From the NCBI GenBank assembly GCA_040954595.2, contig JBECUI020000038.1:1-64000 (forward strand): a DNA stretch of 64,000 nt, written 5' to 3'. Position 1 is the first letter of the stretch. Each line of letters starts with the position of its first letter. The position numbers and the translations under genes are program-made. Below are positions 6,378 through 52,895 of the stretch, one piece after another. Source of the stretch: Balanoglossus misakiensis. Taxonomy: Eukaryota > Animalia > Hemichordata. The notes beneath the pieces were generated by a model. The model ran no database searches and was not told the DNA's origin. It saw only the letters and a list, made by a program, of their open reading frames with translations.

Positions 6378-6787
6378 TAGTGTGGTATGATGTGTATTCC
6401 CGTAGGATTTTTGTGCTAAAATTGATTTTTTTGCTGTTTTGGCTTCTACGGGGACCCAACTACCCGAAAATGATGGGGTGCAATTTTAAGGGCCCCTCCA
6501 TCATATTTTTCTGGGGGGGGGGGGGGTACTTCCGTTTTGTGGTATGATGTGTATTCCCGTAGGATTTTTCTGCTAAAATTGATTTTTTTTGCTGTTTGGC
6601 TTCAATGGGGACCCAACTACCCAAAAATCATGGGGTGCAATTTTTAGGGCCCCTCCATCAATTTTTTTCGGGGGGTCTCTTCTGTTTTGGTCACTCGAGG
6701 ATATTTGTTCACCTATTTACTCTATCATCATGGGAATTTGGGCTACAATTAATTTGTTTTTGTTGTGTTTGCTTTGGAGGAGACCAA
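6378..6787 (+). mobile_element. Second truncated copy of the Academ-type left end
   Basis: Same sequence and breakpoints as 4207-4612, offset 2171 bp. Confidence 0.9.
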
Positions 6788-9722: not shown

Positions 9723-12700
9723 TAGTGTGGTATGATGTGTATTCCCGTAGGATTTTTGTGCTAAAATTGATTTTTTTGCTGTTTTGGCTTCTACGGGGAC
9801 CCAACTACCCGAAAATGATGGGGTGCAATTTTAAGGGCCCCTCCATCATATTTTTCTGGGGGGGGGGGTACTTCCGTTTTGTGGTATGATGTGTATTCCC
9901 GTAGGATTTTTCTGCTAAAATTGATTTTTTTTGCTGTTTGGCTTCAATGGGGACCCAACTACCCAAAAATCATGGGGTGCAATTTTTAGGGCCCCTCCAT
10001 CAATTTTTTTCGGGGGGTCTCTTCTGTTTTGGTCACTCGAGGATATTTGTTCACCTATTTACTCTATCATCATGGGAATTTGGGCTACAATTAATTTGTT
10101 TTTGTTGTGTTTGCTTTGGAGGAGACCAACCTGGCCAAAAATAATCGGGTGCAAATTATAGGGCCCCTCCATCATTTTTTATTTGGGGGGGGGGGGGCAC
10201 TTCCATTTTGGCCACTCCGAAGTTGTTTGTTGGCCTATTTACTCCCTTCTCATAGAATATTTTGCTAAAAATATTATTTTTCTTTGATGTTTTGGTTTCA
10301 ATGGGGCTCCACCAGAACTAAAATGATGGGGTTCAAATTTTTGGAACCTTCCATCATGTCTTGGGGGGGGGGGAGGGTAATCATTTCTGTTTTGGCCACC
10401 CTGAAGATACTTATTCACCTATTTACTATACGGTTAGTATTGTCGTGGTATTTCTTGCAATTTGGTTTGCTCCTTTGGATTGAATGCAGACTGACTGCCG
10501 AAAAGTGATGGTGTGCAAAATGTTGGACCCCTTTACCACATTTTTTGGTGGGGGGGGGGGGTTCTCTATATTTGTTTTCGCCAACCCGTTGTAACAGTAG
10601 TTTTTTTTATCTTAGATTTTTTCGTTTATTCTAAATTTAGTATACTAAGGTAAATTAAAACTCCTTTATATATAATAAAGTACATAATGTGTATTTTAGT
10701 TTATTTTCCGAGCTACAGTCCCATCTCATAAAATGGACCCTTGAGGCACCCTCCCTACCACGGACGGTGCAATAAACAACCCAAGAAGCATAACGATTCT
10801 TTTCTGATATCTTGGTATTCTCAATCATCATTTTCACGAAACCCAGTTCTGTTTGATCTACTCATCGCCAGTGTCGTTATCTTCAAGAACATTTCCCCCT
10901 GGTTTTCAGTCTCCACCATAGCATTTGCAGAGGGGAGTACATAGTAAATCATTCTTTGAGCAACTGCAACGTCCCCTACAACCTGCTTTGCAGCCACATT
11001 TGATAAGCTCTAGTACTGCCTTTGGTGCAGGGAGAGCAAGACATTTTACTGGATAAAACACGCCATTCTCCGATTTCCACCCATTCTTTTTGATTGGGGG
11101 AAGTTCAGGACAATTTGTTGCGTATGATTTATCTCTCATTGTGATGAAGGGGTGGCACCCTTTTCACAGATCACGCAAATCTTATTTTTATCTACATATT
11201 AATTCTGTAGTTTATTGCAAAATGTCCTAATAGCTATCGAACTGGAACGTAAAACGCTGCTTACGGTGCTAAGAAAATAGCCAATATGTATTTAGTAATA
11301 AAACTGAGATGTAGTTCACAGACTTGTTTTATTTTCAGTAGTATTGAGCTACAAAATGAGCCAAATTTGATATTGTTAATGTTTACCAAAACAAGTTTTA
11401 GAAGTAAGACATAGTTCAAGGGCTTTTTACAGCACTATTTTGCTATTGGCATGAAAATTTTGAAAATACTACTTTAAAATAGACAATACTTCAACTGATA
11501 TGGCTTTATTTACGACAGTATTTAACTTTGAAATGAGTTCAACTGAATATCGTTTTAATACCCCAAAAAACAAGTGTTGATTAAAACGTACTTCAGAGTT
11601 TATGCACAGACTTATATCGATGAGAATTTTAGTACAATGGTAAATATCTCAGACATTGATTGTGCTACGAAAGAATAAACAACTCTTAACGAAAAAGTTA
11701 CCAGAATCATATGCATATGATTCTGGTAACTCACGGCCCCTCGGGTGTAATAAACGGCTGCTATGGCCCTCATGGCCAGGCAATAGGTGTTCACTATTTG
11801 GTATAGCCTAGTATACTATATTTTTGTAAACCATAGAAAACATGAGTGTGGTGATGAGTTGGGTGGCGGTCCAAGGTGAGGGGAGGTATATTATGCTAAG
11901 TCCAAACCAGAGAGATATTTGTGGTTGATTTGTTAGTGTCAAAATTCAACTAAGTATATTTATAAAAATAAGATAGCGCTGTAGTATATATGACAACTGA
12001 TACAAATGTAGGTAACTGATATGTTTACCCATAAACCGTCTAATATTTAAGATTCCCAATATGTGGAGAGGCCCTAAAATTTGACCTCATTTTTGAGCAG
12101 TTAGGTCCCCATAGAAGTTAAAAAAAAAGAAATTGGAAGAAATCCTTTACAAATACACATGTCACACTATGAACAAATATCTCCAGGGCTGCTAAAACTA
12201 AAGTGACCCCCCCCCCTGCAAGAAAATGTGATGGAGGGGTCCAACAAATTGATTTCCATCATTTTGGGGATGTTTATTCATCATTGAAACCAAAACAGCA
12301 AACAAAACAAATAACTATTAGCAAAAACTCCTACGAGAATACACGGTATAGGTGAACAAATACCGTTAAGATTGTCGGAATGTAAGTGCCCCCCCCCCAC
12401 AAATGTAATAGAGGGGCCCTAAAATTTGCATGTGATCTTTTGTGACCAGGTGTCAAAACAGCAAAAAAAAAATTCTTTAGCAGAAAATTCTACGAAAATG
12501 GAGTAGATAGGTGAATAAATATCTTCGGGGAGGCCAAAACAGGAGTGACGACCCCCCCCCCCCCCCCCCGAAAAAATATGATGGAGGGGCCCTAAAAATT
12601 GCACCCCATCATTTTCGGGTAGTTGGGTCCCCATAGAAGCCAAAACAGCAAAAAAATCAATTTTAGCACAAAAATCCTACGGGAATACACATCATACCAC

Positions 12701-12870
12701 AAAACGGAAGTACCCCCCCCCCCGAGAAAAATATGATGGAGGGGCCCTTAAAATTGCACCCCATCATTTTCGGGTAGTTGGGTCCCAATAGAAGCCAAAA
12801 CAGCAAAAAAATCAATTTTAGCACAACAATCCTACGGGAGCTGTTTTTCATGACATACCATACCGCACTA
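9723..12870. mobile_element. Non-autonomous Academ-type DNA transposon with ~0.8-kb TIRs built of ~160-bp subrepeats
   Basis: Termini TAGTGTGGTATG...CATACCGCACTA. TSD ACT (9720-9722, 12871-12873); removing the element restores satellite TTTTCGACTGCAAAAT. Internal CXC transposase remnant. Confidence 0.8.
10906..11139 (-). pseudogene. C-terminal remnant of an Academ-type transposase (tesmin/TSO1-like CXC tail)
   Basis: GWK...PAPKAVLELIKCGCKAGCRGRCSCSKNDLLCTPLCKC motif inside the TIR element; the rest of the gene is missing. Confidence 0.75.
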
Positions 12871-15800
12871 ACTGCAAAATCTCAAAATTTGGTCGATTTT
12901 TGAAAAAAATCATGGTGAAAATCATCAAAAAATGACAAATTTTTGATTTTGCAAAATCTCAAAATTTCGTCGATTTTGAAAAAAATTATGGGTTCGTCGA
13001 TTTTTGAAAAAAAACATGGGTGAATTTTCGACTTTGCAAAATCTCAAAATTTCATCGATTTTGAAAAAAATCATGGGTTCGTTGATTTTTTAAAAAAACA
13101 TGGGTGAATTTTCGACTTTGCAAAATCTCAAAATTTCGTCGATTTGGAAAAAAAAATCATGGGTTCGTTGATTTTTAAAAAAAAACATGGGTGAAAATCA
13201 TCAAAAAATGAAAAATTTTCGACTTTGCAAAACCTCAAAATTTCGTCGATTTTGAAAAAAATCATGGGTTCGTCGATTTTTGTAAAAAAATCATGGGTGA
13301 AAATCATCAAAAAATGACAAATTTTCGATTTTCCAAATCTCAAAAGTTCGCCGATTTTGAAAAAAAATCATGGGTTCGTCGATTGTTTAAAAAAAACATG
13401 GGTGAAAATCAACAAAATGACAAATTTTCGACTGCAAAATCTCAAAATTTCGTCGATTTTTGAAAAAAAAATCATTGGCTGTAGCTCATGAAAATCATCA
13501 ACAAATGTCAAATTTTCAACTTTGCGAAATCTCAAAATATCGTCGATTTTTGAAAAAAAACCATGGGTTCGTCGATTTTTGAAAAAAAACATGGGTGAAA
13601 ATCATCAAAAAATGACAAATTTTCGACTTTGCAAAATGTCAAAATTTCGTCGATTTTGAAAAAAATTATGGGTTCGTCGATTTTTGAAAAAAATCATGGG
13701 TGAAAATCTTCAAAAAATGACAAATTTTCGACTGCAAAATCTCAAAATTTCGTCGATTTTCGAAAAAAAATCATGGGTGAAAATCATCAAAAAAATGACA
13801 AATTTTTGATTTTGCAAAATCTCAAAATTTCGTCGATTTTGAAAAAAAATCACGGGTTCGTCGATTTTTTAAAAAAACATGAGTGAAAACCATCAAAAAA
13901 TGACAAATTTAAGACTGCAAAATCTTAAAATTTCGTCGACTTTTGAAAAAAAGCATGGGTTCGTTGATTTTTTAAAAAAACATGGGTGAAAATCATCAAA
14001 AATTTACAAATTTTCGACTGCAAAATCTCAAAATTTCGTCGATTTTTGAAAAAAAAATCATGGGTGAAAATCCTCAAAAAAACGACAAATTTTTGATTTT
14101 GCAAAATTTCAAAATTTCGTCGATTTTGAAAAAAAATCATGGGTTCGTTGATTTTTTTAAAAAACATGGGTGAAAATCATCAAAAAATGAAAAATTTTCG
14201 ACTTTGCAAAATCTCAAAATTTCGTCGATTTTGAAAAAAATTATGGGTTCGTCGATTTTTGAAAAAAAATCATGGGTGAAAATCATCAAAAAATGACAAA
14301 TTTTCGATTTTGCAAAATCTCAAAAGTTCGTCGATTTTGAAAAAAAATCATGGGTTCGTCGATTGTTTAAAAAAAACATGGGTGAAAATCAACAAAATGA
14401 CAAATTTTCGACTGCAAAATCTCAAAATTTCGTCGATTTTTGAAAAAAAAATCATAGGCTATAGCTCATGAAAATCATCAACAAATGTCAAATTTTCAAC
14501 TTTGCGAAATCTCAAAATATCGTCGATTTTTGAAAAAAAAAACATGGGTGAAAATCATCAAAAAATGACAAATTTTCGACTTTGCAAAATCTCAAAATTT
14601 CGTCGATTTTGAAAAAAAATATGGGTTCGTCGATTTTTGAAAAAATCATGGGTGAAAATCATCAAAAAATGACAAATTTTCGACTGCAAATCTCAAAATT
14701 TCGTCGATTTTTGAAAAAAAATCATGGGTGAAAATCATCAAAAAAATGACAAATTTTTGATTTTGCAAAATCTCAAAATTTCGTCGATTTTGAAAAAAAT
14801 CACGGGTTCGTCGATTTTTTAAAAAAACATGGGTGAAAACCATCAAAAAATGACAAATTTTCGACTGCAAAATCTCAAAATTTCGTCGATTTTTGAAAAA
14901 AAACATGCGTTCGTCGATTTCTGAAAAAAAAAACATGGGTGAAAATCATCAAAAAATGACAAATTTTTGATTTTGCAAAATCTCAAAATTTCGTCGATTT
15001 TGAAAAAAAATCACGGGTTCGTCGATTTTTTAAAAAAACATGGGTGAAAACCATCAAAAAATGACAAATTTAAGACTGCAAAATCTCAAAATTTCGTCGA
15101 CTTTTGAAAAAAAACATGGGTTCGTCGATTTTTGAAAAAAAAACATGGGTGAAAATCATCAAAAAATGAAACATTTTAGACTGCAAAATCTCAAAATTTC
15201 GTCGATTTTGAAAAAAATTATGGGTTCGTCGATTTTTAAAAAAAAATCATGGGTGAAAATCATAAAAAAATGACAAATTTTCGAGTTTGCAAAATCTCAA
15301 AATTTCGTAGATTTTTGAAAAAAATCATGGGTGAAAATCATCAAAAAATGAAAAATTTTCGACTTTGCATAATCTCAAAATTTCGTCGATTTTGAAAAAA
15401 ATCATTGGTTCGTCGATTTTTGAAAAAAAAAACATCGGTGAAAATCACCAAAAAAAAATAGGTATTTGACTCAGAGTAAACAAGATTGTGTAATTGATAC
15501 ATGTCAGAACGAGATAGAGATATCACGCGCTAAGTTCATGTTTAAGAAATATTAAGATGACGTGTTCCTTTTATGACATAATACTTGACTAACGTATTAA
15601 TAAGAGGTGGTGAAATTTGATATCACATTATTATCACCGGAGATCCGTGACGGGAGTCAACGAGCATGGATAGAGTCGTGTAATTCTTACGTGTGACCAG
15701 TAATAAACCACAACTATTTGTGTTACTCGGAAAACTTGTTGAAAGTCTCGTTATGCCTCTCGTTAAGTTTACGATATGCCGGGTACCTCTCTCTGACTCT

Positions 15801-16442: not shown

Positions 16443-18410
16443 CTGTTGTGATTATTGCTGGAATAGGCAATGTTTTAATCTGCCTGCAAAGACTCGTGTG
16501 ACAAAGATTGTCGGCCAGTCAACATCACCAACGATATTAACAATATAAAATAAATAAAATTTCAACGATTCAACTTCTTTTCTAGCTTCCTATCTGGATA
16601 GTTTGTTTTTTTTACTCTAAAGATCGCCTTTCTTCCAGGCCACGTGGCAAGAGACGTTATCAACTTCTACTATGATCGATGCGAGAGTACTATAGTATTC
16701 TCATATACACAGACAAAGGCCACCAAAATAAGAGAATCATTTGGTCAAATGGTAGAGGGCGCAAAAACAGATATTTCAAATGACAAAATTTTCCGATAAA
16801 CGTGTTTAATCAAATCAAACTGTGCTCAATGGTATGCTTGCAAAAATTGAATACAAATGAAACAAAACACAGCAACTGCCATGAACAAGAAGTTTATTCA
16901 TGTCAAAATTCAATTTTTTTGAATCATTGATTTCAATTATCAGCTGAAAACTAAAATTAGATTGTCATCTTGAACAGTATAAAATCAGCGAGCCATTAGA
17001 CATTAAGTACCCAGCATACTAAAATAAAACCATGTAAACATGCACAATTAGATAATCAAATAATTTTTATTTATTCACCATGATGTTTTTAATGTATGTC
17101 AAGTCAAAGTACTTGAAGTTATGGACGATCAATTAAAATAGAAAACTGTAATTTTAATGGCTGGGTAATGTATCCAATTTCTGCCCAATATATGAAATTT
17201 CCGAGTTAGCAACTGAAGAATTCGTGGGGAAAATAGTTACGTGATGTGTAACAGAATTCACTTGGAAGTAAGGAGTTTTTGTAAAATCAACATGCATATT
17301 ACAATTTATTTGTAAAAACTTGATTGGCAATGGAAAATTGGCGTTTAAATATATAGTACTTCAAGATGAACAGATAAAATATAAGTTATTACAGATGTCA
17401 TTTTACGACAACAAGGAATGGTAAATCGTTCTTTAATATCTTTAAAGATGCCAGGTCAAAGGTCACCTTTGCAAATTCAACCACTGGTACCATAGCCATT
17501 TCAAATGTAGCCAAAAGTGCGCCACCACTTTCTTCAAACATACTGAAACCATCTACAGGTTACCGTAGTCATATATCTCTTGGCATCCATGGCAGTTTAG
17601 CTAGTCATGAGCTGGCAAGGGGTGACCTGTAAGCTTTAAACTCTGGCTTCGGTAATGTCGACTCTGGCTCTGGCATATACTTGCAGGTCCATATGACCTT
17701 GGGGTGAACATGGTCATGAAGAAATAAATAGAATCTGTTTGGTGCATTGTCAACTTCATTTTATAGTTTCAAAAAATTACAATATGATGAGTAATATTGT
17801 TGTTGTTTTCAAAGAGACTCACCACACACTTTAGTAAATCAATGACTTGAAAAAGTTTTGAGGACTATCATTTGTCAGAATCTCGGACCGCGAGGCACAT
17901 ACTACCTTAAATAGTTTCACTCGCAGCTTCTTGTGGGCAGTTTCTCCTTGCGTACCTGTACAGACACACCAGGAGGCCGTTCCCGATGAACAACTCAACC
18001 CACATGAAAACATTCAAGCGTCTGGTCACACCCATTTCCGTCAAACAAGAACATGAATGAAACTGCGGAGGAAGAGAACGGGAGAGTGCCCATTAACCCT
18101 GTAATGACCAATCATTTACTGGAACAAGGTTCAGGATGTACGATCACTGGAGTTGAAAATAAGGTCATGGATTTGAAAATTATTTTGAGTTATGAAATTG
18201 AAAATACATATTTTTCATTGTGGATTCTCCGACATAAATATTATCAAAAACAATAAGGGTTGTCTTTTTAATTTATGACATATAACGCCATGAATCTAGC
18301 CCATTAATACAAAGGCAATACTAAAACACATTTCGGGTTAGCGTTATGACAACTTGAAGAAAATATGAATACAAACTTTCTAAAGTAATATTTTAAAGGT
18401 TGGCGTATTG
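16443..18410 (+). repeat. ~1.97-kb segment, direct repeat of 34041-36009
   Basis: Colinear, high identity by eye with scattered substitutions, from CTGTTGTGATTATTGCTGG to GGTTGGCGTATTG. Confidence 0.93.
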
Positions 18411-18525
18411 ATTACAGCTTGTTTGTTCTGCTATTAATGGAAATTCGGTTAGAGCCGTTTGAGGCAACTCTTATTCTGTCAAAGTTATGGCGTTAACTTA
18501 TTCTGATAAAGTTATGTTAACGCTA

Positions 18526-21778: not shown

Positions 21779-21984
21779 AATGAGGCAGTGAACACTGGGG
21801 GGACCAGACTGACACGTTAACCAATCAGGGAGCTGTATGGTGAATAAATACATATTAATAAGACCTAACCTACAAGGTCCTGCATAATGAGGCAGTGAAC
21901 ACTGGAGGACCAGACCTACACATTAACCAATCAGGGAGCTGTAAAGTGAATAATGCATTGTAATAAGACCTAACCTACAAGGTC
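21779..21984. repeat. Two ~107-bp tandem copies with CCAAT motifs, LTR/U3-like
   Basis: AATGAGGCAGTGAACACTGG...AACCAATCAGGGAGCTGTA...TAAGACCTAACCTACAAGGTC twice, next to the truncated RT. Confidence 0.6.
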
Positions 21985-22129
21985 TGGTGAATAATACATA
22001 GTAATATGACCTAACACATAAGGTCCCTCCAATCAGCGAGCCGCAAGTGGACCTTAGAGAAGTGGATAAACCAATCAGAACATGTAATACGTGTGCATAG
22101 GACCTGTAATGTAGGTCATTTTGAAACAG

Positions 22130-24144
22130 GACTAGTTCACCATGACCAACCACATGACCCAGGAAATCGATCTGCTCATAACCCACATAACACTTAGTTG
22201 GTCTCGCTGTTAACTTTGCCTTTCGTAGTCTGCTCATCAAATCTGTAATTGTCTTGATATGTTCTTCCCATGATGCAGTGTGGATCAGTATGTGATCGAT
22301 ATAGTTGTCTACGTTCTTCATATCTCTTAACAATCTTCTCATAATTCTGCTAAAAGTCGCAGCACTATTTACAAGTCCGAAAGGCATTTTGATAAATTGG
22401 TATAGCCCATCATGCGTGATAAATGCCGTCAATTGTTTAGAATTATCAGTCAACGGGACTTGCCAATATTCTTTGCTGAGATCTACTTTAGTGAAATAGT
22501 GATCCTTGGATAACTTAGCAAAAAGCAAAAAGCTCACTCAGGTCTGGTGTAGGCTCTGCATCAAACACTGTTATGCGATTGAGCTTTCTCATGTCAACAC
22601 AACAACGATTGGACCCATCAGATTTCTTCACCATTACCAGTGGAACAGCATATGGACTCTCTGAAGGTTCAGCTACTCCCATCTTAATCATCGTTTTGAC
22701 TTCATCTTTCACTGCTTCACGGAGTGCATGAGGGATGGGGTATGGCCTACTGCATACTGGTGTTGGATCCATCAACTTGATGTCATGGAAACCCAGGTTG
22801 GTGTTACCACGAATATCAGTTAACATATCTTTGTAATTGATCAGCAACCTCCTCACCACTTGCTTCTGTATGTCTGACAAGTTGTCACATACATTCACAT
22901 CTGCAGCAAATTCTTTCTGCTTGAATGCAGGAACCCGCAGTAAGTCATCGTTTACTTTAACCCCTGTGTTCTCTTGTACTTCTGAAGATTCATAACTCTG
23001 CTCATCTATCACAGATACACACACAATCTCAAGAAGTCCAGCTGATACTTCATCTAGCTGATCAGTTCTTCGATAGTACCTCTTCAACAGGTTGGCATGG
23101 AATGTTTTCACCCTATGACCAAAGTCAATCTTGTAATCCATATTGCTCGCTTTCTCCACCACTGGAAAAGGACCCTTCCAGTGCATAAGTAGTTTATTAT
23201 GGTCAGTAGGTAGTAGCAATAACACCTCGTCACCTTTGTTGAACTTCCTCCATTTGGCCTTTCTATTGTAGTAGGACTTGTATTTGCCTTGTGATATCTT
23301 CAGTTCTTGTCTTGCTAAATCGCATGCCTTCTTTAATTTCTTTTGAAGATCAAGGATGTATTGATAAGTCGTTTTGGTTTCTGGTTCACTGATCTCTCCA
23401 GTCCATAGTTCTTTCAAGATAGCCATTGGACCACGCACACTCCTCCCATAAAGTAACTCAAACGGAGAGAATCCTGTGCTCGATTGAGGCGTTTCTCTGT
23501 AGGCAAATAGTAAAGCATTCAGATAACGATCCCAATATGTTGGACGTTCCTCACACATCTTCCTGAGCATGAGTTTCAATGTACCATTGAACCGTTCCAC
23601 TAGACCATTGAATGCTGGGTGGTATGGGGTGGTAGTCATCTGCTTTATAGACAAAAGCCGGCTGACCTCACGCATCACATCTGATGTAAATTGAGTTCCT
23701 TGATCTGTCAGAATTTCACGTGGACACCCCACTCTTGAGTAGATGTCCAGGAGCGCCTCTGCAACAGTCTTGGTATCAATGTTAGTCAATGCAACAGCCT
23801 CCGGATAGCGTGTTGCATAATCAACAACAGTAAGTATGTACCTATTCTTGCGTTCAGTGCATGGATGAATAGGGCCAACCAGGTCTACTGCAATACGTAG
23901 GAAAGGGATATCTATTAGTGGCATACTTCCAAGTGGTACCTTGGTCACCCGTCCCTTTGGTTGTGTCCGTTGACATGAATCACAGGACTGACAGTAACGG
24001 GAAACATCTGATGTTAGCCCAGGCCAAACGAAGTTGCTGAGGATCTTGTCTGTGGTCTTGTGAGTTCCGTGGTGACCACCCAGCACTGATTCATGGGCTA
24101 GTCTCATCACCTGGTTACGATACACTCTGGGAACCACCACCTGT
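22130..24144 (-). pseudogene. Gypsy integrase (H2C2 + rve core) followed by reverse transcriptase; frameshifted, truncated before RNase H
   Basis: AHESVLGGHHG..CQSC, VDLVGP, TDQG, NGLVERFN, WKGPF; RT MPFGL; catalytic YIDD mutated to YIDH; frameshift at ~22520. Confidence 0.92.
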
Positions 24145-24993
24145 CACTACAGCTTGAACGACGCCACCTATGGGCAGTATTTCCGTGGCAGCCTATGAAG
24201 CTCATGAATATTTAATTAGACACAGTAATGGCGTTCGCGATCGAACACAGCTGTCGATGCACAGCATAATTCGGTGAGTAATATTGCTTTATTCCAAGTT
24301 TTGTTTAGTAAAATTAGCAAGATGTCAGAGACAATATGAAATAAAGTTGCGATTCTGCTGTGTTATTTATGTGTATCAGCCAAATAACTTGAACATTTTG
24401 ATCACCCGCTGACAGTCCCTGGCCGTTGCTATAGCAGAAGCCGTCCTAAGCAACCATAAACAAACACTAAAAATTACAACGATTCAGCTTCACAGAATTG
24501 TTTTTTTCAATTTGAAAACCATACGAATTTAGTCTTTTATACGTAAACATAGGATTCCATGTTTAAAATGCTGCTACAAGCAATATGACGAAATCATACC
24601 AAGCGAAAATATACGACCCTGTGTGTTCCTTGGCAGCAGCACGGGTTACATTGATTGTAATGGCGGCGCTTCGAATTTTCGGCGACATGGTGATATTGTT
24701 CATAGAATTGACAGAAAATAAGACCGTAACTGAAAAATCAGAAACCAATAGTTTGTGCTAAAATATATTCTTGATATAATTCGCTGGAAATTCGAGGGTG
24801 AAAACGAAATAAGAAAAAAATGAATGGGCGAGATTGTTATGGTAAGGTTACCCACATTCTTTCTATGTCACCTTTGACCTCAATTTCTGGAGGAAGTATA
24901 ATGAGCAGGTGTTTTGTTTTTGCTTCCCTCGGATAGATAATTATTGTAAAGATATTTCTCTTGTTCACCCTTTTCAGGTATAGATTTAGAGCC

Positions 24994-27900
24994 ATGTGGG
25001 GCAAACTATTCAACAGGAGTAGCGCACTTCTTAAAAGTTTGTCTATTGTTATGCCGAATAGAAAAGGGAAAAGTTACTTCAACATAGGCCAGTGGGCAAA
25101 GGACCAAAAGATAGCGAGACAGGTAGCTGAAGAGAAGTGTTTACAACAACTATATCAGGAGAAATTGAAGACTAGATCTTTGTCTGGGAGCGTGGCCAAC
25201 AACCTATTGGTAGTTAGAACAAAGAGAGGACAGACTAAACACAGGTTTAACTTAGGAGAGTGGTGTAGACAGAGAAAGAGAAAGAGAGATGAGGAAGAAA
25301 GCATAATTCAGGATAAGTTGAATAAGTTGAGTGCAGCTAGGAGACTAGTAAAAAGATCCTCAACCCAGCTAGCTAGACTAGAGAAGAAGAACAGTAAGAT
25401 TTGTGAGATCTTAGCTACAAAGAATAATAAGAGAAAGGTAAGCTAGATCAGATAAATAGACTTAGTCATAATTTTAAAAATCTCAGATTTGTATAAATCC
25501 TCTTCAAATTTTAGCCCAAATTCGCTTTTTGAACTTCATGTCACATGATCCTGTGTAAACAATGATAACAAAATGGGTTCAGCTTTGATGCAAAACATCT
25601 AGGTTTTCCAACAAACTATGTATATTTTTTAGGATTTTTATTGCAGAAGTTGTCAGAAAAATACAGGCTACACGTGTGTATTTCTTATCAAGGACATTTA
25701 AATTAATGATTAACTTGTAAGAAGATTTTATTTTATATATAATGATTATATTCTAATTAGTATATATTTATCACACACTTAATCTTTCAGATTCCTGTTG
25801 ATGTTGTTAATGTGAAACGCTCTAAATGGGTCCACAAGAACACTGAAGTATGTGCAGATAATAGTGAATCTTTGAAGCTGTCGCGACGTCAACAGTATGA
25901 ACGTAGGTGTGAAACCTTATCAGCAGCCATAAATATTCATGTAGCAACTACAGATGTAAGCCCAGCCAAAGGTATAAATAAACCGAATGTACTACATCCA
26001 CCAAAAGCAGCACTTGATGGTTTGTGGTATACTCTTGTTAATTCTGCCACTCCTGACCAAATGAAAACATTCTTCAGAACCTCTCCCCAAATCAGTAAAA
26101 AAGTAATGCCATCAGTATTTGATAAATACATCAGTAAATTTGAGAAAAGTGAGAACAATTTGGTGAGGAGTGTCAGAACTATGTATGAGGGCGGAGTACT
26201 ATCCAAACGAAAATATAACTGTCTGAGGCAGAGTGAACTTCAGATGTTCTCCAACTTGAAACATCCTAGGAAAGCATTAGAAATTCATTCTGGCTGTAGA
26301 ATACCAAGACTGCTCCCATACACAAAAGTTGTACAGTATGTAAGTAACCTTGACATTGGAAATCTTGAGCCAATTATATCATCTGAAGGCAAACAAGTCG
26401 GCTTAAAAAGAAACCCTGAGGAGTTGCTTATTAAGATTGCCAGTTTATATTTAAATATGGGGGAAACACAGCCTGATATTCTTAACTGGTTCGGTAAACA
26501 GGAGGGCTCATTTCAAATCAGTATAGGTGCTGACGGGGCTCCGTTTGGCAAACATGGACAGGCCACTGCATGGCTAGTTAGTTTCTTGAATGTGACCCAC
26601 CGTGTTGCTAGCCCAGACCACAATTTTCTCCTATTAGGGGCAAACATAAAAGAGGATGACCCCATAATGATTGAATTTGCAATTGCATTGTCAAAAGACC
26701 TTGAGTGTATTGAGAAACGTAAATATAAAGTTGGCAGTCTTGATGTAACTTTTCAGGTGTCACTTTTACCCTTTGATCAGAAGGGATTGGCCAGTGTGTC
26801 TGGAGAACTAAGCAATGCAGCAAAGTATTTCAGCTCATTTGCTAACGTTCCAAAAATGATATTGATTGTATTGGAGCAGAAATTGGCCCAGGTCAGAAGT
26901 GGGATGAATGGAAATATCAGAAAAGAATTAAAGATGCAGAAGCTGTTGAAAAGTTGAAGTCAACTAAGAAAATTAAAACTGGAAAGCCCAAAACAGTGCG
27001 ACCCAAAATCACACAATTTATAGCCAGTCTGAGGTCAAGACAGGAATTTGTACCACCGTTGGGTAGATTTATTGATTGTGCCAAGGCTGAGCCATTGCAT
27101 TTAAAGAACAATGCATGGCAATACTACTTCCAACGATTACTGATTGACGCAGTTGCCCACACTTCGGAAAAGGGTCGTGAAAATGGAGTTAAAATTGAGA
27201 ATCTACCTAACGAGTCATATCTGTACAAATTCCTGTCTGCCCTAAAATATCAAGTAAAAGCTGGAAAGTTGTATAATAAGATTGTAAAATACTTCAATGA
27301 AAATAGTGTCAAGTCAAATGCCAACATTAATGTGGTTTATCGCTTCACTGGTGAGGAGTCTCGCAAACTTGCTTGGCATTTCATAGGATTGGTATTAGCA
27401 TTGAGAAGCGATACAGACAGACCAAAGCGTCGGGCTCAATTAGCTCTCTACACATATACTGGTATCTTGCTTAGAGATATCACTTTGTTATTCTCACGAT
27501 TCAACATAAATGAGGGAGATTTGCTTGTACTTAGGCATAAGTGTCGGTGGTACTTTAATCTACATTCCCTGTTTCTGAATGTCAATAATACTGTGTGGCA
27601 CATTGGTTATGTAGTCCCAAAACACACCACTAGTATCTATAAGCAATTCAGTCTGGGATTAGGCCTAAACACAATGGAAGGCAGAGAGGCAAAGCATCTA
27701 CGCCTGCTAGAATTCAGTGAAAATTCTACACCTCAAAATAGGTGGGCCCTCATATTTCGACACGAATATGTGATGCTTTTTTGGCTGAGGAACAAAAGTC
27801 CAAAAGCTGACAACTATAGAAATGCAAATGTAGGTCAATTTGAGCTTAAAGAAAAAGAAAAATACATTCCCAGTCGATATTATGAGAATGCAGGCTACTG

Positions 27901-28031
27901 TATGTGTGGCAATTTAAAAAAATGAAACAATGACTGCCTGTGAAATATGTGTTGACCCAATTATGGATGACATAAAAAAAGCAGCTGTCACTGGTAAAAT
28001 ATCAAATAAACTCAAGAAACTTATGCTGTGA
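24994..28031 (+). pseudogene. Spliced RAG1/Transib-like transposase; exons 24994-25437 and 25791-28031; two single-base frameshifts (~26850, ~27920)
   Basis: Phase-0 AAG|GTAAGC...TTTCAG|ATT intron joins the ORFs in frame. Motifs SIGADG, PFDQK..SG, EPLHL, RFTGEESRKL and GLGLNTMEGREAKH are colinear with RAG1 ESCDG, YDEK, DALH, RMNGNFARKL and GAWASEGNESGN. C-terminal CxCG-x9-CxxC after frame repair. Confidence 0.75.
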
Positions 28032-28883
28032 ACAATGATTGAATTTGAAACAGTGGATTGTGTCACTGTGTGCTACTTTAGAATTAAAGGATAACTATAG
28101 TATTAATTACATTACAGAATTATAAAGACTCATCTGTAGTTGAGAGCTGCATTTAATAAAAATGGAGATCACAAATCACATGAATTCACACTTTTTGAAC
28201 TGGAGATGATATGTTTCTTATGGGATTTTGTATATGTGTGCATGTATGGGGACAGGGAAATTGAAACTTATCTTACCACTATTAAGTATTGTGAATAAAC
28301 CCTTAATCGTATAGTGATTGCAGTGCTTTGCAAAATTAAAATGTATGACATACATAAGCTTGATAGAAAAGTTTTACATTTTTCTTGAGGAGTTGTTTAT
28401 TCTGCACCTGCACGAAATTTTAATGAATTTGTGAAAAAATAAAGAATTAAGTCTCATCAAATTCTTGATATTTATAAATTTTGTCATGGAATTAATTGTA
28501 AATATTAATTAAATTTAGACCAGAAATCCTGGTTAACTGTTAGATGAGCAGTTTTGATTGACTTATCAATGTTGATTGTAGGTAACATACATTTTTTTCT
28601 GAAACTAATGAAAAATCTATGTTACAATAATGATGGAAAAAAAGAATTTTACAGTTTAGGAAATTTTGTAAACATTATCTGTTCATTTGTATTGAATGTA
28701 GATAAATAAAGACAAGTGATGAATTTTTGAGTCTTCTAATTTTCCTTTTTTTATTTGAATATATGTCAATTGTGAGAGGACTGTCTTGACAGACTGATAC
28801 ATCTACACTGAACAACATGTGCCACAGATCAGGAAAAAAATGTTCCTCAGATGGGTTGAATCAGTGTGAAAAATCAATAGGGT

Positions 28884-29534
28884 TCAGTTCTCTGGATGTA
28901 ATGGAATTCCATGTTTGTTCCAGGCACCAAAGCTGAATCTAACAGCAACAGTCTCCCTGTTGATAAAATATTTCACAACACAGGGCTTCTCAGGTGTGAA
29001 TATAACAGCTACCCTCTTTCCACGGACTTTCTTCTCTAGGATATTCTCTGTATGCTGACCGATAGCGCCCTCGTAGCAATAACCTTTCCGTATCACATAC
29101 AATAGCTTCAAGGAACTTGTGAAGGTCAAGGTTATGATAGCCCTGGAGGTCTTCTCGTCGATACCAAAACCGGTCCGAGTAGCAAACTGATGAAAAACAT
29201 CAAATACTTCCCTCGGCATTTGTCGTGTAAAGCTGCTTTGCCATGGTAACCTTAACGACGGGGATGTTGACAGCCGAGCGTAGAAGGTCTTCTGCCAGTA
29301 GGTCATATCACGCTGAAACATGGGAAATACGGCGACGTCACGCCAACGAATCTTGTCCTTTGACAGCTTGTCGTTTCGAAATATGGCCCTTGTTGTCACA
29401 TCCTCAAGTTCATCAAAGAGTGGGTGTATATACAGATTGTCCGACACGCATTTTTTACGTTTAAGCACAGATTTTGCCTCTCGCAATTTGCGTTTTATAA
29501 CTTTCTCGGCATCGATCAACACGGGCGCCGCCAT
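28884..29534 (-). CDS. 216-aa basic orphan protein, second gene of the transposon, convergent with the transposase
   Basis: Uninterrupted ORF starting in a CAAGATGGCGGCGCCC context 85 bp inside the right terminus; no domain recognised. Confidence 0.75.
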   Translation of the reverse strand: MAAPVLIDAEKVIKRKLREAKSVLKRKKCVSDNLYIHPLFDELEDVTTRAIFRNDKLSKDKIRWRDVAVFPMFQRDMTYWQKTFYARLSTSPSLRLPWQSSFTRQMPREVFDVFHQFATRTGFGIDEKTSRAIITLTFTSSLKLLYVIRKGYCYEGAIGQHTENILEKKVRGKRVAVIFTPEKPCVVKYFINRETVAVRFSFGAWNKHGIPLHPEN

Positions 29535-29621
29535 CTTGGCAATGCGTTGCTATGGTGAACATGGGAGCTCGCGCTTCGCGGAATACTGCCCAACATAGCT
29601 CTAGTATTTCCCGCAGTGTGT

Positions 29622-31391
29622 AACAGCTTTTCACCAAATTGGACCATTGGCGAATTGAACTCTCTGTACAGGATCCCATCTTTCATGATGAACTTCAACC
29701 TACCTCCATTCCTAGTCACTTTCTCGTCACCCAAAATTGCCTTCTCACGTAGTTTGTCAAGAGTGGAGTCTTCTTCTTGAGCTTGTTGAAGCTTCCCTGG
29801 CATCACCACTTCACCAACAGCTTTAGGTACTTTAAGCTCTCTGATTGGTTTTTGGTTGGCTATCTTCTGGGCTCTGGTCTCCACAGCATTTGCTAAACCT
29901 GGTACCTGTCCAACAGTTGTACACAGTCTACATGTCGGCAATGGTTCCTGCCATGTAGTATCAGGATTCGAAGGGTCAGATACACCATCAATGTTGCCCA
30001 GTATTAAATCATACACATGGTTCATCATGCACAGTGCAGTAACATCACCAACAAAGTAAGGGGTATCAACTTTTATAGAGGCTACAGGTACTCTTCTAAT
30101 AGTCCCATCTATCAGAACACACGTCCTGTACTCACCAGTCAGCTGATTACTTGACACCAGACTTCTTCGAACTACCACGCTACTACACCCACTATCACGC
30201 AAAACGCTAACCAGCTTACCATCGAGCAATCCCTTCATTACCGGCATCTTCTTCACTCCATGGGCACTACAAGCAGCACTCATCACTGGGAGCTTATGAC
30301 CACATGGTAACACGAACTCCTTATTCAGTGTTGCATCTGTTTTATCTATTTCCATTGCTACCACCATACATGCATAACCAGTGTCTAGTCCCCTGGGCTG
30401 TTGACGGTTGCCCCAATGTGTACATTCTTGTTTAGGTGGATAGTTTCTATCTTCTTCAGTTAACAATACCGCCGTCTTATGCATCTTTGGCTTACTTCTA
30501 CAATCTTTTGCCATATGACCACCTTTACCACATACGAAGCACGTACCTTTAAAAACATGGGAACCATTGGTTTTGTTATTAAACTTATTTACTTGATTTG
30601 GATATACAGAAGGCTTGGTATTTGCTGTCGGCTGGCTCCTTGGATTATTCTTGGCATTACTTGGCAGTTTCCACCACCCTCGGGCATCTAAGTATTTTGA
30701 GGCAGTAGATACCATCTCTTGGACATTCTCTGGCCGTCGCTCTCTAATGAACATTGCCATGTCTCTGGAACATACTCCAATAAACTGCTCTCGAAGTAAC
30801 AGATCTGTAAGCCCATTGTACGTCTTTGGAGTACCAGCCAGTTCTACCCATCTGCCCAAATAGTCACCAATACGGTCCATAAACTTTTGAGCACTTTCAT
30901 CATAATGTGGCATACACGAACGGAACTTGTCATGAAAACTCTCCTCACTTAACTGGTAAGCCCTCAATAACTCTGGTTTCAATTCATCATAATTATTTGC
31001 AGACGCTGCAGGCATTTGGTTGTATGTGGATACATCCTTACCTTGTAACAATATGCACTGAGATTCACCCCCAGTCATCTTTTTCCCACTTCTGAGCAGT
31101 GGCGTAGCGCTGAAAACGTTGAAGGTACGCATCCATATCATCAACATCCTCACGAAAACCCTGTAGTCTCGGAGCACGCGCTTTGGCCAAATTATTTTCA
31201 GTAACCTGCTGTTCTGTATTTTCCCCTTTCAATTTTAATTCTTGTAAGTGAATTTGCATTTTCAGTATCTCTCTCTCATGTTCCTCGCGCCGCCTATTAT
31301 CTTCTCTCTGCTCCTCTCTCTCAGTAGCCCTAAGATCCCTCTGTCTAATTTGTTCCTCTCTAACATAATCTTTTAAAGCAGTCCCTTCCAA
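29622..31391 (-). pseudogene. Gypsy gag (SCAN-like capsid, CCHC knuckle) and aspartic protease, frameshifted at ~31070
   Basis: DDMDAYLQRFQRYA, LLLREQF, CFVCGKGGHMAKDC, LRDSGCS, DLILGN. Confidence 0.9.
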
Positions 31392-31727: not shown

Positions 31728-32408
31728 AATGTCAGAGGTGGAGGGCACCCCTCTGATTCCAGGATAAATATTGAGCAGCTCTCAGTGCCAAGGAGTAAAC
31801 ATCCGTGGATAAGGTATGGGGAGAAACTACACAAACCAGTGCGGATACAATAATACAGTTGATTTAATTTAAATCAATTAAATAATATAAAGATAATACT
31901 AGGAATATAATTTTTGTGCACAATATGCACAATATCAAATGTCTCTGTCCTAACCAATTTAGCAGGTACAGGTATGCTGATACAATTGGTCATACAATAC
32001 AATGGGTTACTTAATATATTACATAAATGAATATATTCACAATATCACTATAGTTTATTGTCTATTGCATATTGTCTAAACAATGGTAAGTGTCACTTAG
32101 CTGTATATAACATTCATAGTAAACAATCATGATTCAACCACAATATGGGATGGAGTCCTGTATAGATGAACGATGTAGCGACGATCCACATTACACATAC
32201 AATCTGTGATACACCATGTTTTCTACCACTTGTAGTCCTCCAGTAGTCAAGTAAACACACTGAAGACTGACTTGTTAGATGCAAGTCTTGGGTTAAATGG
32301 CTGAATGAAAAATCAACAAACATTGACTGAAATGTCCACCTTAGCAACTGTTCACAAATGAATACTGACGTTTCTCAATAATAATTATCAGAAATTTGGA
32401 CTAGTTAA

Positions 32409-33203
32409 GATGGGTCCCTAGGATCTTTTTGCCCGTTGCTATGGGCCTTTATAGGACATTACACCCCGATTTGGACTAAGCCGTTTTCAGAGTCTAACAA
32501 GGGGCTGGTAACTAGTTAAAAATACGCACGATTGTGAGCGCGCGCCCCCTGACGCCATTGATATGCAAATTAGTTAGGTCAAATTTCAAAAGCCTAAGGC
32601 TTTTTATTCCGTGACCTCAAAAACGAACTTGATACGTATTCATTAGTTGCTTGAACCAGGGAAGATCGTGACGGATTTTGTTTTCGAATATTATCGTTGT
32701 ATCCTACGATTTCAGCATACCCGTACCACACCTGAAAAAGTCATCGATTTTGGGTGTTTTTGGACGCACTCTTCCACTGGTATCGCTTCTTAGCACGACG
32801 AAAACCGAAAAAACGATCCGTCACACTATGCGGAAGTGCGTTTTCAACAAGCAGGTCAAATTTGGCTGGCCTACGTCGCCTGTGAAAAAAGCCTTAGGGA
32901 TTTTCGTGAACGGTACAAAATCTCTGTGTACAAAACATTGGATTTTTAGCGTTCGATCCAGTTACTGTGGTTACAGGACGCGCACGCTATCGCTGACCGC
33001 TGCTTTGCCGTATTAGCGTGGCGGCCTATGGCCGGGCGGTAGCTGCCGTAAACATACTCAGACAGGGGGTGTGCACACAATCGTGTGTATTTTTAACTAG
33101 TTACAAGCCCCTTGTCGGACGTTCATAACGGTTTCGATCAAAATTGAGTGTAGTGTCCTATAAAGGCCCATAGCAACGAGCAAAAAGATCCTAGGGACCC
33201 ATC
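32409..33203 (+). mobile_element. 795-bp TTAA-flanked MITE (Kolobok-like RR termini), ~130-bp TIRs
   Basis: TTAA|GATGGGTCCCTAGGATC...GATCCTAGGGACCCATC|TTAA; near-identical inverted copy at 53536-54330. Confidence 0.9.
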
Positions 33204-34040
33204 TTAAAGCGTCATGATTACATGTGATATCATGGAAAATTATGCTTTAACTATGACCGTCCTATTACTTACAAATTGTCGAATTTGACATAAATATCCA
33301 TAAAATATAAATTTAAGTTATAGTAAATAAATAAACAAATACATTACTTACACGAGAATTCTTCACCACACTTCATGCTCAGCAATACCGGGTCTATAGG
33401 ATGGTTCCACAGAACTCTGCTTGGAGCAATTTCCAGCCACACCACATACGACCATGCCAGCCACGCCAATCGCCCGACCACACCGGTTTGCACTGAATAA
33501 GCACAATTCTGCTTTCTAGAAGTACTGAATTTACTTCCACTCGAATTGCAGAAACAGTGGTCCTGAGAGCACTAATGCGCGCTACAGCATTACATGGACA
33601 CAGCAAGGTATGGTGCAATATTTCCCCTAGTATTTCTACTCACTGAGCAGGGAGACCCGACTTGTTGCTCCCTTCAAGACCTAAATTGAAGTGTGCTCTC
33701 TTACTACACGAAACTTAGCTAACGAAGCCCTATTCATTAACATGACAATACACGGTGTCACTACACCTGAAATTATGCGGGCACCTGGGTTTCCACTGAC
33801 TCCAGTACTACCTAATTATATGACAAGTTGGGACCGACAGTCGAGACCCATACAGCATTACAATCAACAAATAGTAAAAAAAAATAAAAAAGTAAACAAA
33901 AAACAGGAAAACATTTTAAAAATACAAATAAAATTATGAAACTACTAAAAAAACAAAACAAAAACAAAAACAACACAAAAACACAAAACAACAAGCGAGG
34001 TCAATAAAGATTAACGCTTACAAAGATAGAAAAAGTAAGA

Positions 34041-36009
34041 CTGTTGTGATTATTGCTGGAATAGGCAATGTTTTAATCTACCTGCAAATACTGGTGTGAC
34101 AAAGATTGTCGGCCAGTCAACATCACCAACGATATTAACAATATAAAAATAAATAAAATTTCAACGATTCAACTTCTTTTCTAGCTTCCTATCTGGATAG
34201 TTTGTTTTATTTTACTCTAAAGATCACCTTTCTTCTAGGCCACGTGGCAAGAGACGTTTTCAACTTCTACTATCATCGATGCGAGAGTACTATAGTATTC
34301 TCATATACACAGACAAAGGCCACCAAAATAAGAGAATCATTTGGTCAAATGGTAGAGGGCGCAAAAACAGATATTTCAAATGACAAAATTTTCCGATAAA
34401 CGTGTTTAATCAAATCAAACTGTGCTCAATGGTATTCTTGCAAAAATTGAATACACATGAAACAAAATACAGCAACTGCCATGAACAACAAGTTTATTCA
34501 TGACAAAATTCAATTTTTTTAATCAGTGATTTCCATTATCAGCTGAAAACTAAAATTAGATTGTCATCTTGAACAGTATAAAATCAGCGAGCAATTAGAC
34601 ATTAAGTACCCAGCATACTAAAATAAAACCATGTAAACATGCACAATTAGATAATCAAAGATTTTTTATTTATTCACCATGATGTTTTTAATTTATGTCA
34701 AATCAAAGTACTTGAAGTTATGGAAGATCAATTAAAATAGAAAACTGTAATTTTAATGGCTCGGTAATGTATCCAATTTCTGCCCAATATATGAAATTTC
34801 CGAGTCAGCAACTGAAGAATTCGTGGGGAAAATATTTACGTGATGTGTAACAGAATTCACTTGGAAGTAAGGAGTTTTTGTAAAATCAACATGCATATTA
34901 CAATTTATTTGTAAAAACTTGATTGGCAATGGAAAATTGGCGTTTAAATATATAGTACTTCAAGATGAACAGATAAAATATAAGTTATTACAGATGTCAT
35001 TTTACGACAACAAGGAATGTTCAATCGTTCTTTAATATCTTTAATGATACCAGGTCAAAGGTCACCTTTGCAAATTCAACCACTGGTACCATAGCCATTT
35101 CAAATGTAGCCAAAAGTGCGCCACCACTTTCTTCAAACATACTGAAACCATCTACAGGTTACTGTAGTCCTATATCTCTTGGCATCCATGGCAGTTTAGC
35201 TAGACATGAGCTGGCAAGGGGTGACCTGCAAGCTTTGAACTCTGGCTTCGGTAATGTCGACTCTGGCTCTGGCATATACTTGCAGGTCCATATGACCTTG
35301 GGGTGAACATGGTCATGAAGAAATAAATAGAATCTGTTTGGTACATTGTCAACTTCATTTTAAACTTTCAAAAAAATAACAATATGGTGAGTAATGTTTT
35401 TGTTGTTTTCAAAGAGACTCACCATACACTTTAGTAAATCAAAGACTTGAAAAAGTTTTGAGGACTATCATTTGTCTGAATCTCGGACCGCGAGGCACAT
35501 ACTACCTTAAATAGTTTCACTCGCAGCTTCTTGTGGGCAGTTTCTCCGTGCGTACCTGTACAGACACACCAGGAGACCGATCCCGATGAACAACGACACC
35601 CACATGAAAACATTCAAGCGTCTGGTCACACCCATTTCCGTCAAACAAGAACATGAATGAAACTGCGGAGGAAGAGAACGGGAGAGTGCCCATTAACCCT
35701 GTAATGGCCAATCATTTACTGGCACAAGGTTCAGGATGTACGATCACTGGAGTTGAAAATAAGGTCATGGATTTGAAAATCATTTTGAGTTATGAAATTG
35801 AAATACATATTTTTCATTGTGGATTCTCCGACATAAATATTATCAAAATCAATAAGGGTTGGCTTTTTAATTTATGACATATAACGCCATGAATCTAGCC
35901 CATTAATACAAAGGCAATACTTAAACACATTTCGGGGTAGCGTTATGACAACTTGAAGAAAGTATGAATACAAACTTTCTAAAGTAATATTTTAAAGGTT
36001 GGCGTATTG
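34041..36009 (+). repeat. Second copy of the 1.97-kb segment at 16443-18410
   Basis: Colinear match. Confidence 0.93.
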
Positions 36010-36542
36010 CTTAGCATAATCATTTTTCCGTTTGCTGTGACATTTGTCTCCCTGTGAGAGTTTAAGTAAATGTAGAGTCACGCAAATTAGGCAACATCAA
36101 TATCCCATACGTAATTCAGTGTGTTTTGTTCGCATTTTTGGTTTTCATTTTGAAAATGAACAAAGGACTTTCCTATCATTGACCAACACTCGTATGAATA
36201 CATCCAAATTACCCAACTTTAATTTTCCTTAAAGAATTGGTCAGCTCTGCGAATATATTTCACCTGACCACTTCCTTTGCTAAGGAAGAGTGTTGTTTAT
36301 GTAATAATATTTTTATAATATTTATAACTTATGTAGCACATTAAATCTCAACGTGCTTTAAGTTGTCCCATGGTCATTTGAGCTAGGATGTTGGACCTAA
36401 ATATTCCATTAAACTCCCTGGGGAGCAAACAACATCTCACCATCATTAGAAATGCCAAATTACAGTGCTTTTGGCCACGTATTAACCTGGGGATTTACAG
36501 TTAACTTTAAATACACACGCATATGCATTTAATCCCCATGTG

Positions 36543-44609: not shown

Positions 44610-44901
44610 ATTTGTCTTGTAATTCAGTGACTGTAATGACGTTATTTTGGGATACATAATGAAATAAATACACCCGTCTTTATTGTATGCTGCATATTTG
44701 TTTATTTGTGTTGACGAATGATAAGTACATGTCCCATGTTTGAAGATTTGCATGTACGTATGCATATATATAATGTGGTTTAGGTTACCTCTCGATGGGA
44801 GGGGCCTTAACTAGGCTCTTTGCTTTTGCAACCTGCCATTTGTAGGATCCTGTCGAGGGGCGCCCCCACATTTCAGGACGGTTGATATCACCGTTTTGTT
44901 G

Positions 44902-47097: not shown

Positions 47098-47316
47098 ATC
47101 ATGTAGTTGTTACTATTTATGGGATATATGATGGGTATACAGTAAATGGTTTTTCTTCTTTGGTGAATTTGTAGTATTGCAAAAGATCGTTAGGATTTTG
47201 ATAGAGATATTATAAGTGTATCTTCTATTAATGTCAATATTATCTGGTATGAAATAAATAAAATATTTTATGTCTTAGTAGACTGATGAATGGGTGTCTC
47301 TTATGATTTCTTCTAG

Positions 47317-52795: not shown

Positions 52796-52895
52796 GCACT
52801 CAAATCACGGCTAAAAAGTCACCAAATCTCGTAAAGGTTGCTTGCGTATGTTCTTCGATAGTTAATTTAGACAACTAAATCCTCGTCGCCATTTA

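Follow-up and report, generated by a model that had tools for sequence, protein, structure and literature searches.

Which class of DNA transposon has inserted into a Ty3/Gypsy retrotransposon of the hemichordate Balanoglossus misakiensis, and what part could its second gene play? The question is raised by a 5474-nt element at positions 24145..29618 of contig JBECUI020000038.1 (assembly GCA_040954595.2), of which we analysed positions 1 to 64,000 of the forward strand (hereafter the window). A first-pass annotation of these letters had described the element as a RAG1/Transib-like transposon with two genes in a ProtoRAG-style tail-to-tail layout, a partner other than RAG2 and a 3-bp target site duplication (TSD). 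From the analyses reported here we conclude that it is probably a copy of a two-gene, cut-and-paste DNA transposon from an as yet unclassified branch of the CMCT clade (EnSpm, Mirage, Chapaev, Transib and RAG1), the movement of which is likely to be helped by its partner protein.

The boundaries can be read directly in the sequence, and they are those annotated from the interrupted Gypsy frame, the CAC..GTG ends and the duplicated TGT. The element starts with CACTACAG and ends with ..CCCGCAGTG, which places CACTA at one end and CACTG at the other. It splits the minus-strand pol frame of the host Gypsy into a gag-protease open reading frame (ORF; 29516-31228) on one side and an integrase ORF (22515-24143) on the other, and has inserted immediately upstream of the zinc-binding domain of the integrase. 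The 10-mer GGGCAGTATT is present exactly twice in the 64 kb, once per element end and each time from 27 nt inward. Since it lies at equal depth in both ends and nowhere else in the window, it sets the boundaries on independent grounds. Both element junctions are spanned by contigs of run X1, which is possibly the window's own source. The read contigs over the element showed neither a joint across it nor loose ends with good support at its termini, and contigs cannot prove absence. A long-range likeness between the two ends was not significant (score 67; shuffles with a mean of 52 and a maximum of 81), and a comparison of the host flanks (with an X at the break) with the second Gypsy in the window gave scores of 120-123, with or without the 3-bp duplication alike. 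The element and its host site comprise the following features, all in window coordinates.

21923..31228, minus strand: host Ty3/Gypsy retrotransposon with SCAN-gag, protease, integrase and reverse transcriptase in this order (Pfam matches), outside the element proper
24142..24144, plus strand: left copy of the TSD, TGT (sequence)
24145..24185, plus strand: left terminus, CACTACAG.., including the 10-mer GGGCAGTATT 27 nt inward, at 24172-24181
24994..25437, plus strand: first coding exon (ORF, motif), Met at 24994 or 25051, basic and probably coiled, with the motif F-x-I-G-Q-W
25438..25790, plus strand: predicted phase-0 intron, GT..AG (splice-site letters, frames of both exons)
25791..28031, plus strand: main exon in three frames (homologue mapping), frameshifts near 26848 and at 27916-27922, stop at 28029-28031
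26517-26537, plus strand: first Asp, in ISIGADG
26769-26786, plus strand: second Asp, in PFDQKG
26826-26849, plus strand: YFSSFANV, where CxxC is expected
27089-27112, plus strand: PLH motif
27671-27697, plus strand: Glu, in TMEGREAKH
from 27896, plus strand: C-terminal CxC-x10-CxxC
28884..29534, minus strand: ORF2, an intact frame for a basic alpha/beta protein of 216 aa, in convergent orientation to the transposase, with the ATG 85 nt inside the right end
29578..29618, minus strand: right terminus, reading CACTGCGGG.. inward, the 10-mer GGGCAGTATT again 27 nt inward, at 29582-29591
29619..29621, plus strand: right copy of the TSD, TGT (sequence)

The gag of the host Gypsy (21923-31228, minus strand) contains a SCAN-like domain, and its integrase is encoded upstream of the reverse transcriptase, an order of domains which we take to be Gmr1-type.

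With the exons joined and the two frameshifts bridged, the transposase amounts to about 875-895 aa, in agreement with the spliced protein of about 900 aa proposed on the plus strand. A homologue from Ptychodera flava aligns to its three pieces with 74%, 71% and 58% identity. The F-x-I-G-Q-W motif of the first exon recurs at the N-termini of homologues (P0051, P0059), and P0051 weakly matches this exon at 25078-25113 (tblastn, E 0.19). Both frameshifts fall in homopolymer runs. One contig of run X2 carries an additional T after 26847, at the first frameshift, which could therefore be an allelic difference or an error of the assembly. Judged by its letters, the copy as assembled is predicted to be unable to make a full-length transposase. 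A short ATG exon with a GT donor at 24820-24841 would splice into a frame other than that of the transposase and is perhaps a 5' untranslated exon with an upstream ORF.

Protein searches revealed 76 matches among 3152 candidates, with 75% identity for P. flava and 32-44% for the others. The named matches (Acropora, Actinia, Porites, Desmophyllum, Lineus and Owenia, also Pocillopora) are all annotated as uncharacterized or hypothetical. We aligned 66 of the 76 and used the alignment as a profile, which retrieved 3346 clusters (50% identity) at E <= 0.001 and 721 at 1e-30, fragments being frequent among them. The window's transposase pieces had no match in Pfam or by sequence in the PDB, the PDB yielded none for the 66-sequence profile either, and none of the 76 proteins has a precomputed Pfam assignment. 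Pfam searches with the 66 homologues gave no significant common family (best E 0.0056 among the best 25 of 57 families at E <= 1). Transposase_21 (PF02992) was matched neither among these best 25 of 57 families nor by the window pieces or P0002, the P. flava homologue. Viral contigs contained no relative, and a Chapaev3 motif pattern matched no reference sequences in them.

The catalytic residues are nearly invariant among the 66 homologues (numbering of P0002: D181 in 66, D262 in 65, E566 in 66, and H370 of the PLH motif in 66), and D, D and E follow each other in the RAG1 order that had been annotated. The replacement of CxxC behind the second Asp, first noticed as YFSSFANV in the window, is a property of the whole family: CxxC is found there in 0 of the 66 homologues and 0 of 117 further representatives covering the site; a CxxC at another place in the stretch from Asp to Glu occurs in two of the 66. 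In mouse RAG1 the zinc ligands are C727, C730, H937 and H942 and the catalytic residues include D708 and E962 (PMC4914335, excerpt; this mark denotes papers cited for their accessible part). The positions equivalent to C727 and C730, 19 and 22 past the second Asp, are mostly Ser and Ala in this family. The second His of the H(3-4)H motif before the Glu is kept in 64 of 66 sequences and the whole motif in 24, the window and P0002 having Tyr at the first position. Because C(2)C and H(3-4)H are reported for all CMCT lineages listed in PMC12730594 (excerpt), the alignment indicates that the missing CxxC is a real departure from the CMCT pattern. By analogy, the zinc site equivalent to that of RAG1 is likely to be empty, and the C-terminal CxC-x10-CxxC motif, the four cysteines of which are kept in 64, 64, 63 and 61 of 66 sequences, is likely to bind zinc. 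Upstream of the core, no CxxC was found in the 66 homologues, some of which are N-terminally incomplete, or in the window's first exon. The second Asp and the Glu are separated by 269-305 aa (median 301, 65 sequences), compared with 206-214 aa in Transib and 253 aa in RAG1 (PMC1131882, excerpt).

For structural comparison P0002 was folded and not the frameshifted protein of the window. The model (pLDDT 91.4) matches the RAG1/Transib core, with the best score for RAG1 (Z 23.0, rmsd 4.5, 483 residues aligned; Foldseek E 1e-11), followed by BbRAG1L (Z 19.9), HzTransib (Z 19.8), the P element (Z 12.5) and Hermes (Z 6.5). No CMCT member other than RAG1 and Transib came up among the solved structures, and the identity of P0002 to their chains is 9-13%. 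Among predicted models, RAG1 (TM 0.63, 0.60), cnidarian and arthropod clusters of EnSpm-type Transposase_21 (0.62, 0.61), Plavaka (0.59) and a DUF1280 (16%) cluster (0.58) were matched. In the ESM Atlas, the unnamed and mostly cnidarian clusters of P0002 itself reach TM 0.82-0.85 and named families at most 0.63, and the Atlas flags a low agreement between its best named matches. Language-model features ranked the DUF1280 (16%) cluster highest among the named clusters listed (0.97), followed by RAG1_RNase_H and RAG1 (0.95); no EnSpm cluster is found among the matches listed, which do include RAG1-type clusters. DUF1280 has been equated with Chapaev and placed with RAG1 (PMC3985635, excerpt), and the features lean weakly to the RAG1/Transib/Chapaev side. 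Because the EnSpm, Plavaka and DUF1280 models score level with RAG1, the modelled fold places the transposase as a CMCT-clade enzyme and no closer; a kinship specific to RAG/Transib is not shown by it.

Relatives of the element were collected in a metagenome scan, in which 253 stretches matched, 212 were confirmed and 80 loci were kept; an additional locus, L081, is located on an 86-kb contig from a prokaryotic bin. The ends of the relatives are mostly CACGC(C/T)GGG or CACGGTGGG, i.e. CACG and not CACT, and mostly form perfect terminal inverted repeats (TIRs) of 10-16 bp starting with CACG. Near-identical copies sit in different flanks. Both termini were chosen by eye in 12 loci, 11 of which had flanks long enough for a TSD test. 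Five of the 11 have an exact 3-bp TSD (L003 GAT, L006 ATT, L075 TAG, L076 ATT and L081 ATA), a result with a chance probability of about 9e-7, and a flank match of at least 4 bp was seen in none. The 3-bp TSD annotated for the single copy recurs in five of its relatives and is longer in none of the 11. None of the six duplications, the window's TGT included, is TWA (TAA or TTA).

Two observations on individual relatives should be added. In L081 a complete 8.5-kb element (5241-13782), flanked by an ATA duplication, lies within a 294-bp tandem array; its contig is assigned to an Anaerolineae bin. The locus is the one match in prokaryotic genomes, its GC content is below that of the flanks, and it is probably animal DNA in the bin and not a transfer to bacteria. 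The copies L047-L052 have in common a second terminus-like CACGCCGGG about 845 nt inside the left end, directly after an inverted ORF2 fragment.

The intact, convergent 216-aa frame annotated on the minus strand (29534-28884) was confirmed, and the partner protein that it encodes accompanies the transposase in most of the related loci with enough downstream sequence. Searches with the ORF2 protein alone (P0001) detected homologous ORFs in 32 of the 80 loci. Two rounds of profile searching brought the number of loci with a convergent homologue to 34 of 80. Among loci whose sequence continues for 1400 nt or more downstream of the transposase these are 33 of 37, and among those with 2000 nt or more 21 of 22. 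In each of the 34 the orientation is convergent (other orientation: 0 at E < 1e-8). ORF2 is present in 16 of 20 nucleotide families and is carried by L081 as well, and its ATG lies 78-107 nt inside the right end in all eight elements checked. Transposase and ORF2 distances are correlated (Spearman 0.63, 0 of 5000 permutations; 19 elements, 16 at one per family). The two trees have four multi-member groups in common, while the placement of L003, L006 and the window differs or is unresolved. The dN/dS ratio of ORF2 is 0.31-0.34 in three of 11 pairs, the other eight being saturated at silent sites. From these results we conclude that ORF2 is co-inherited with the transposase and under purifying selection. 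The ProtoRAG-style layout proposed for the element stands insofar as two convergent genes lie within its ends. It is not peculiar to ProtoRAG: since the MuDR gene pair is convergent too, the layout is no evidence of shared ancestry.

The ORF2 protein (39 K+R, 22 D+E) was modelled (pLDDT 83.9) with 5 helices and 7 strands, namely N-terminal helices and a C-terminal, seven-strand alpha/beta domain of high confidence. Pfam searches revealed no kelch and no chromatin-reader domain, and a six-bladed kelch RAG2L is ruled out by the size of 216 aa and by the secondary structure of the model, so that the partner is indeed an alpha/beta protein other than RAG2. ORF2 was also not detectable as a piece of the transposase (hhalign probability 0.1). 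Foldseek gave no match at E <= 0.001 in the PDB or among viral models; the best structural Z was 7.4 for a generic helical hairpin and 5.2 for the alpha/beta part, neither significant. RAG2 and Argonaute N domains are not among the clear fold matches, which excludes neither. A single-sequence search of the protein database gave no match, and a profile search gave 17 homologues, all carrying PF26709, a family for which no naming paper was found. Apart from this, six of ten full-length elements (L002, L010, L048, L068, L075 and L081) contain an inverted copy of their own ORF2 region (98-339 bp, 88-96% identity), located 280-900 nt inside the left end and present in different lineages; the window, L003, L006 and L076 have none. 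These copies could give rise to antisense or hairpin RNA, or could be a by-product of end repair.

For an intact copy we propose that a transposase dimer would bind the CAC ends together with the subterminal motif. The element would then be cut out, probably by nick and hairpin, which is the chemistry of RAG1/Transib (PMC10629977, excerpt), and be reinserted with a 3-bp stagger. A promoter within the right end would drive ORF2, the product of which may be a nucleic-acid-binding cofactor that helps to assemble or control the transpososome, comparable to the role modelled for TnpA of EnSpm (PMC13547354, excerpt). This last step is the weakest, and we regard its chances as about even.

Other explanations have to be weighed against a partner-helped CMCT transposon of its own lineage. 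It is decidedly improbable, in our view, that the family represents a divergent EnSpm/CACTA subfamily, possibly in Repbase already, with ORF2 in the part of TnpA. The two genes, the CACTA/CACTG ends of the window copy and the TM scores of 0.62 and 0.61 for cnidarian and arthropod Transposase_21 clusters would fit, as CAC..GTG ends with a 3-bp TSD have served to class elements as EnSpm (PMC12730594, excerpt). However, the relatives end in CACG and C(2)C is missing, no Transposase_21 appears among the best 25 of 57 Pfam families for the homologues, the feature matches listed include RAG1-type clusters and no EnSpm cluster, and TnpA is described as spliced or tandem (PMC13547354, excerpt), not convergent. 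A derived branch inside the Transib/Chapaev/RAG1 side, which lost its zinc cysteines and gained ORF2, comes nearest to the title of the first-pass annotation and appears improbable. Here, the nearest named feature clusters among the matches listed (DUF1280, RAG1_RNase_H and RAG1) and the grouping of DUF1280, as Chapaev, with RAG1 (PMC3985635, excerpt) are in favour, and because 3-bp TSDs occur within Transib lineages (bioRxiv 10.64898/2026.08.26.747230, excerpt), the TSD alone cannot exclude Transib. The identity of 9-13%, as opposed to a mean of 26% among RAG1L and Transib (PMC9435367), argues against such a branch, as do the Asp-Glu spacing of 269-305 aa (PMC1131882, excerpt, for the values in Transib and RAG1), the lack of an N-terminal CxxC in the 66 homologues and of TWA in the six TSDs, and the low-agreement flag of the Atlas.

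Alternatively, the element could be as described and differ in the role of ORF2 alone, which would be an anti-silencing or RNA-level regulator with no action on the transposase; we consider this possible, if somewhat unlikely. Language-model features of ORF2 weakly resemble Argonaute N/L1/PAZ clusters (0.93, with a recognition score below the tool's bar), the inverted ORF2 copies in six of ten full-length elements could give double-stranded RNA, and co-inheritance is compatible with any element-encoded function. Against this, the Argonaute lead has no significant structural match (best Z 5.2 for the alpha/beta part), and no chromatin-reader domain was found by Pfam.

Several points weigh against the CMCT transposon with a fixed partner, which we nevertheless prefer. 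Six of the 11 testable relatives (L002, L010, L012, L048, L052 and L073) have no 3-bp match, L048 matching at 2. Flanks are shared by L073 and L075 (left), by L048 and L052, and by L012 and L011 (right), which may stem, as would be expected, from assemblies mixing copies. The outer TIR of the window copy itself is poor, with 9 of 20 positions identical. The fold rests on a homologue and not on the window's own protein. Four of the 37 loci with long downstream sequence (L001, L018, L037 and L040) are without ORF2 even in a permissive search, and PF26709 on the ORF2 homologues means that this protein family had already been noticed. Finally, the lineage is set apart by motifs, ends, layout and fold scores, not by a cross-family tree, and nesting in EnSpm, Chapaev, Mirage, Transib or RAG1 is possible.

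RAG1-type enzymes are thought to have acquired RAG2 only once. An extensive lineage in which the same fold goes with a different fixed partner, a 3-bp stagger and no CxxC offers a natural comparison set, which bears on the use of a second subunit, the purpose of the zinc site and the determinants of TSD length. The analysis also gives an identity to many proteins that are listed as uncharacterized in the genomes of corals, hemichordates, nemerteans and annelids. With copies that look intact and have 3-bp TSDs, the lineage can be tested in cells. A more far-reaching version, which we regard as doubtful, is that of a superfamily-level branch of the RAG1 clade, common in corals and marine invertebrates, the zinc-site-free enzyme of which would depend on a small partner with a fold not described so far, recruited independently in a way similar to RAG2.

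The remainder of the window is rich in other repeats. Positions 44112-48585 (plus strand) contain three ORFs, one with a zinc knuckle, one of 760 aa that matches nothing in Pfam and one with ALOG and tyrosine recombinase, and probably represent a DIRS-like retroelement. The second Ty3/Gypsy (49210-52804, minus strand; PNMA-gag, reverse transcriptase, RNase H, integrase) has about 30% identity to the integrase of the host element. Positions 1-15440 are taken up by a complex satellite, in which units of 78/79 bp and of about 105 bp occur in either orientation and higher-order repeats measure about 2.2-2.6 kb. An inverted repeat of 803 nt (98%; 32405-33207 and 53532-54334) and a direct repeat of 1975 nt (97%; 16443-18414 and 34041-36013), which brackets the host Gypsy, are possibly long terminal repeats or another mobile element.

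Among known systems, the element resembles RAGL/ProtoRAG and RAG1-RAG2 (PDB 5ZDZ, 6B40; PMC10629977, excerpt; PMC9435367), with which it shares the fold (about 460-480 residues aligned), the D-D-E order, CAC ends and two convergent genes within the ends. The RAGL partner, however, is a six-bladed kelch protein and not a 216-aa alpha/beta protein, its TSD is 5 bp and not 3 bp as in the window element and five relatives, its tail is CX2CX3GHX4C (CCGHC; PMC10629977, excerpt) and not CxC-x10-CxxC, CxxC is present, and the identity is about 10%. Transib (HzTransib, PDB 6PQX; PMC1131882, excerpt) is alike in fold (Z 19.8) and CAC ends, whereas its SxxCxxC motif is absent here, the second Asp-Glu spacing has a median of 301 and not 206-214 aa, and a second gene is present. 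Chapaev3 (PMC4079192, PMC4411706, excerpts) shares CAC..GTG ends, the 3-bp TSD, the LH motif and, in some members, the two-exon transposase. It targets TWA (PMC4079192, excerpt) and not TGT, GAT, ATT, TAG, ATT and ATA; moreover, our family lacks C(2)C and a cysteine-rich Chapa domain, shows H(4)H in no more than 24 of 66 sequences and carries a second gene. EnSpm/CACTA with TnpD and TnpA (PMC12730594, PMC13547354, excerpts) is alike in the 3-bp TSD, the accessory protein and the predicted fold (TM 0.62), and its CACT(A/G) ends are matched by the window copy, whereas the relatives end in CACG, Transposase_21 is not among the best 25 of 57 Pfam families, C(2)C is absent, and ORF2 is convergent and not, like TnpA, produced by splicing from TnpD or placed in tandem with it (PMC13547354, excerpt). 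The whole CMCT clade, with Plavaka, ESTA and Lanisha included (PMC12730594, excerpt; ESTA and Lanisha compared by description only), shares CA..TG ends, a 2-5-bp TSD and the RAG1-like DDE core; in our family C(2)C is missing and the first His of H(3-4)H mostly so. Literature searches revealed no description of the family; Repbase, Dfam and most subscription journals, the likeliest first place of filing, lay outside these searches. Of the separate RAG/Transib/CMC lineage with a different accessory protein that had been proposed, the closer kinship to RAG1/Transib is not established, given TM scores of 0.62 for EnSpm and 0.59 for Plavaka. The distinctness from the described families tested stands: the family falls outside RAGL by partner, TSD, zinc motif and tail, outside canonical Transib by motif, spacing and second gene, outside Chapaev3 by TWA, C(2)C and Chapa domain, and outside canonical EnSpm by domain match and layout.

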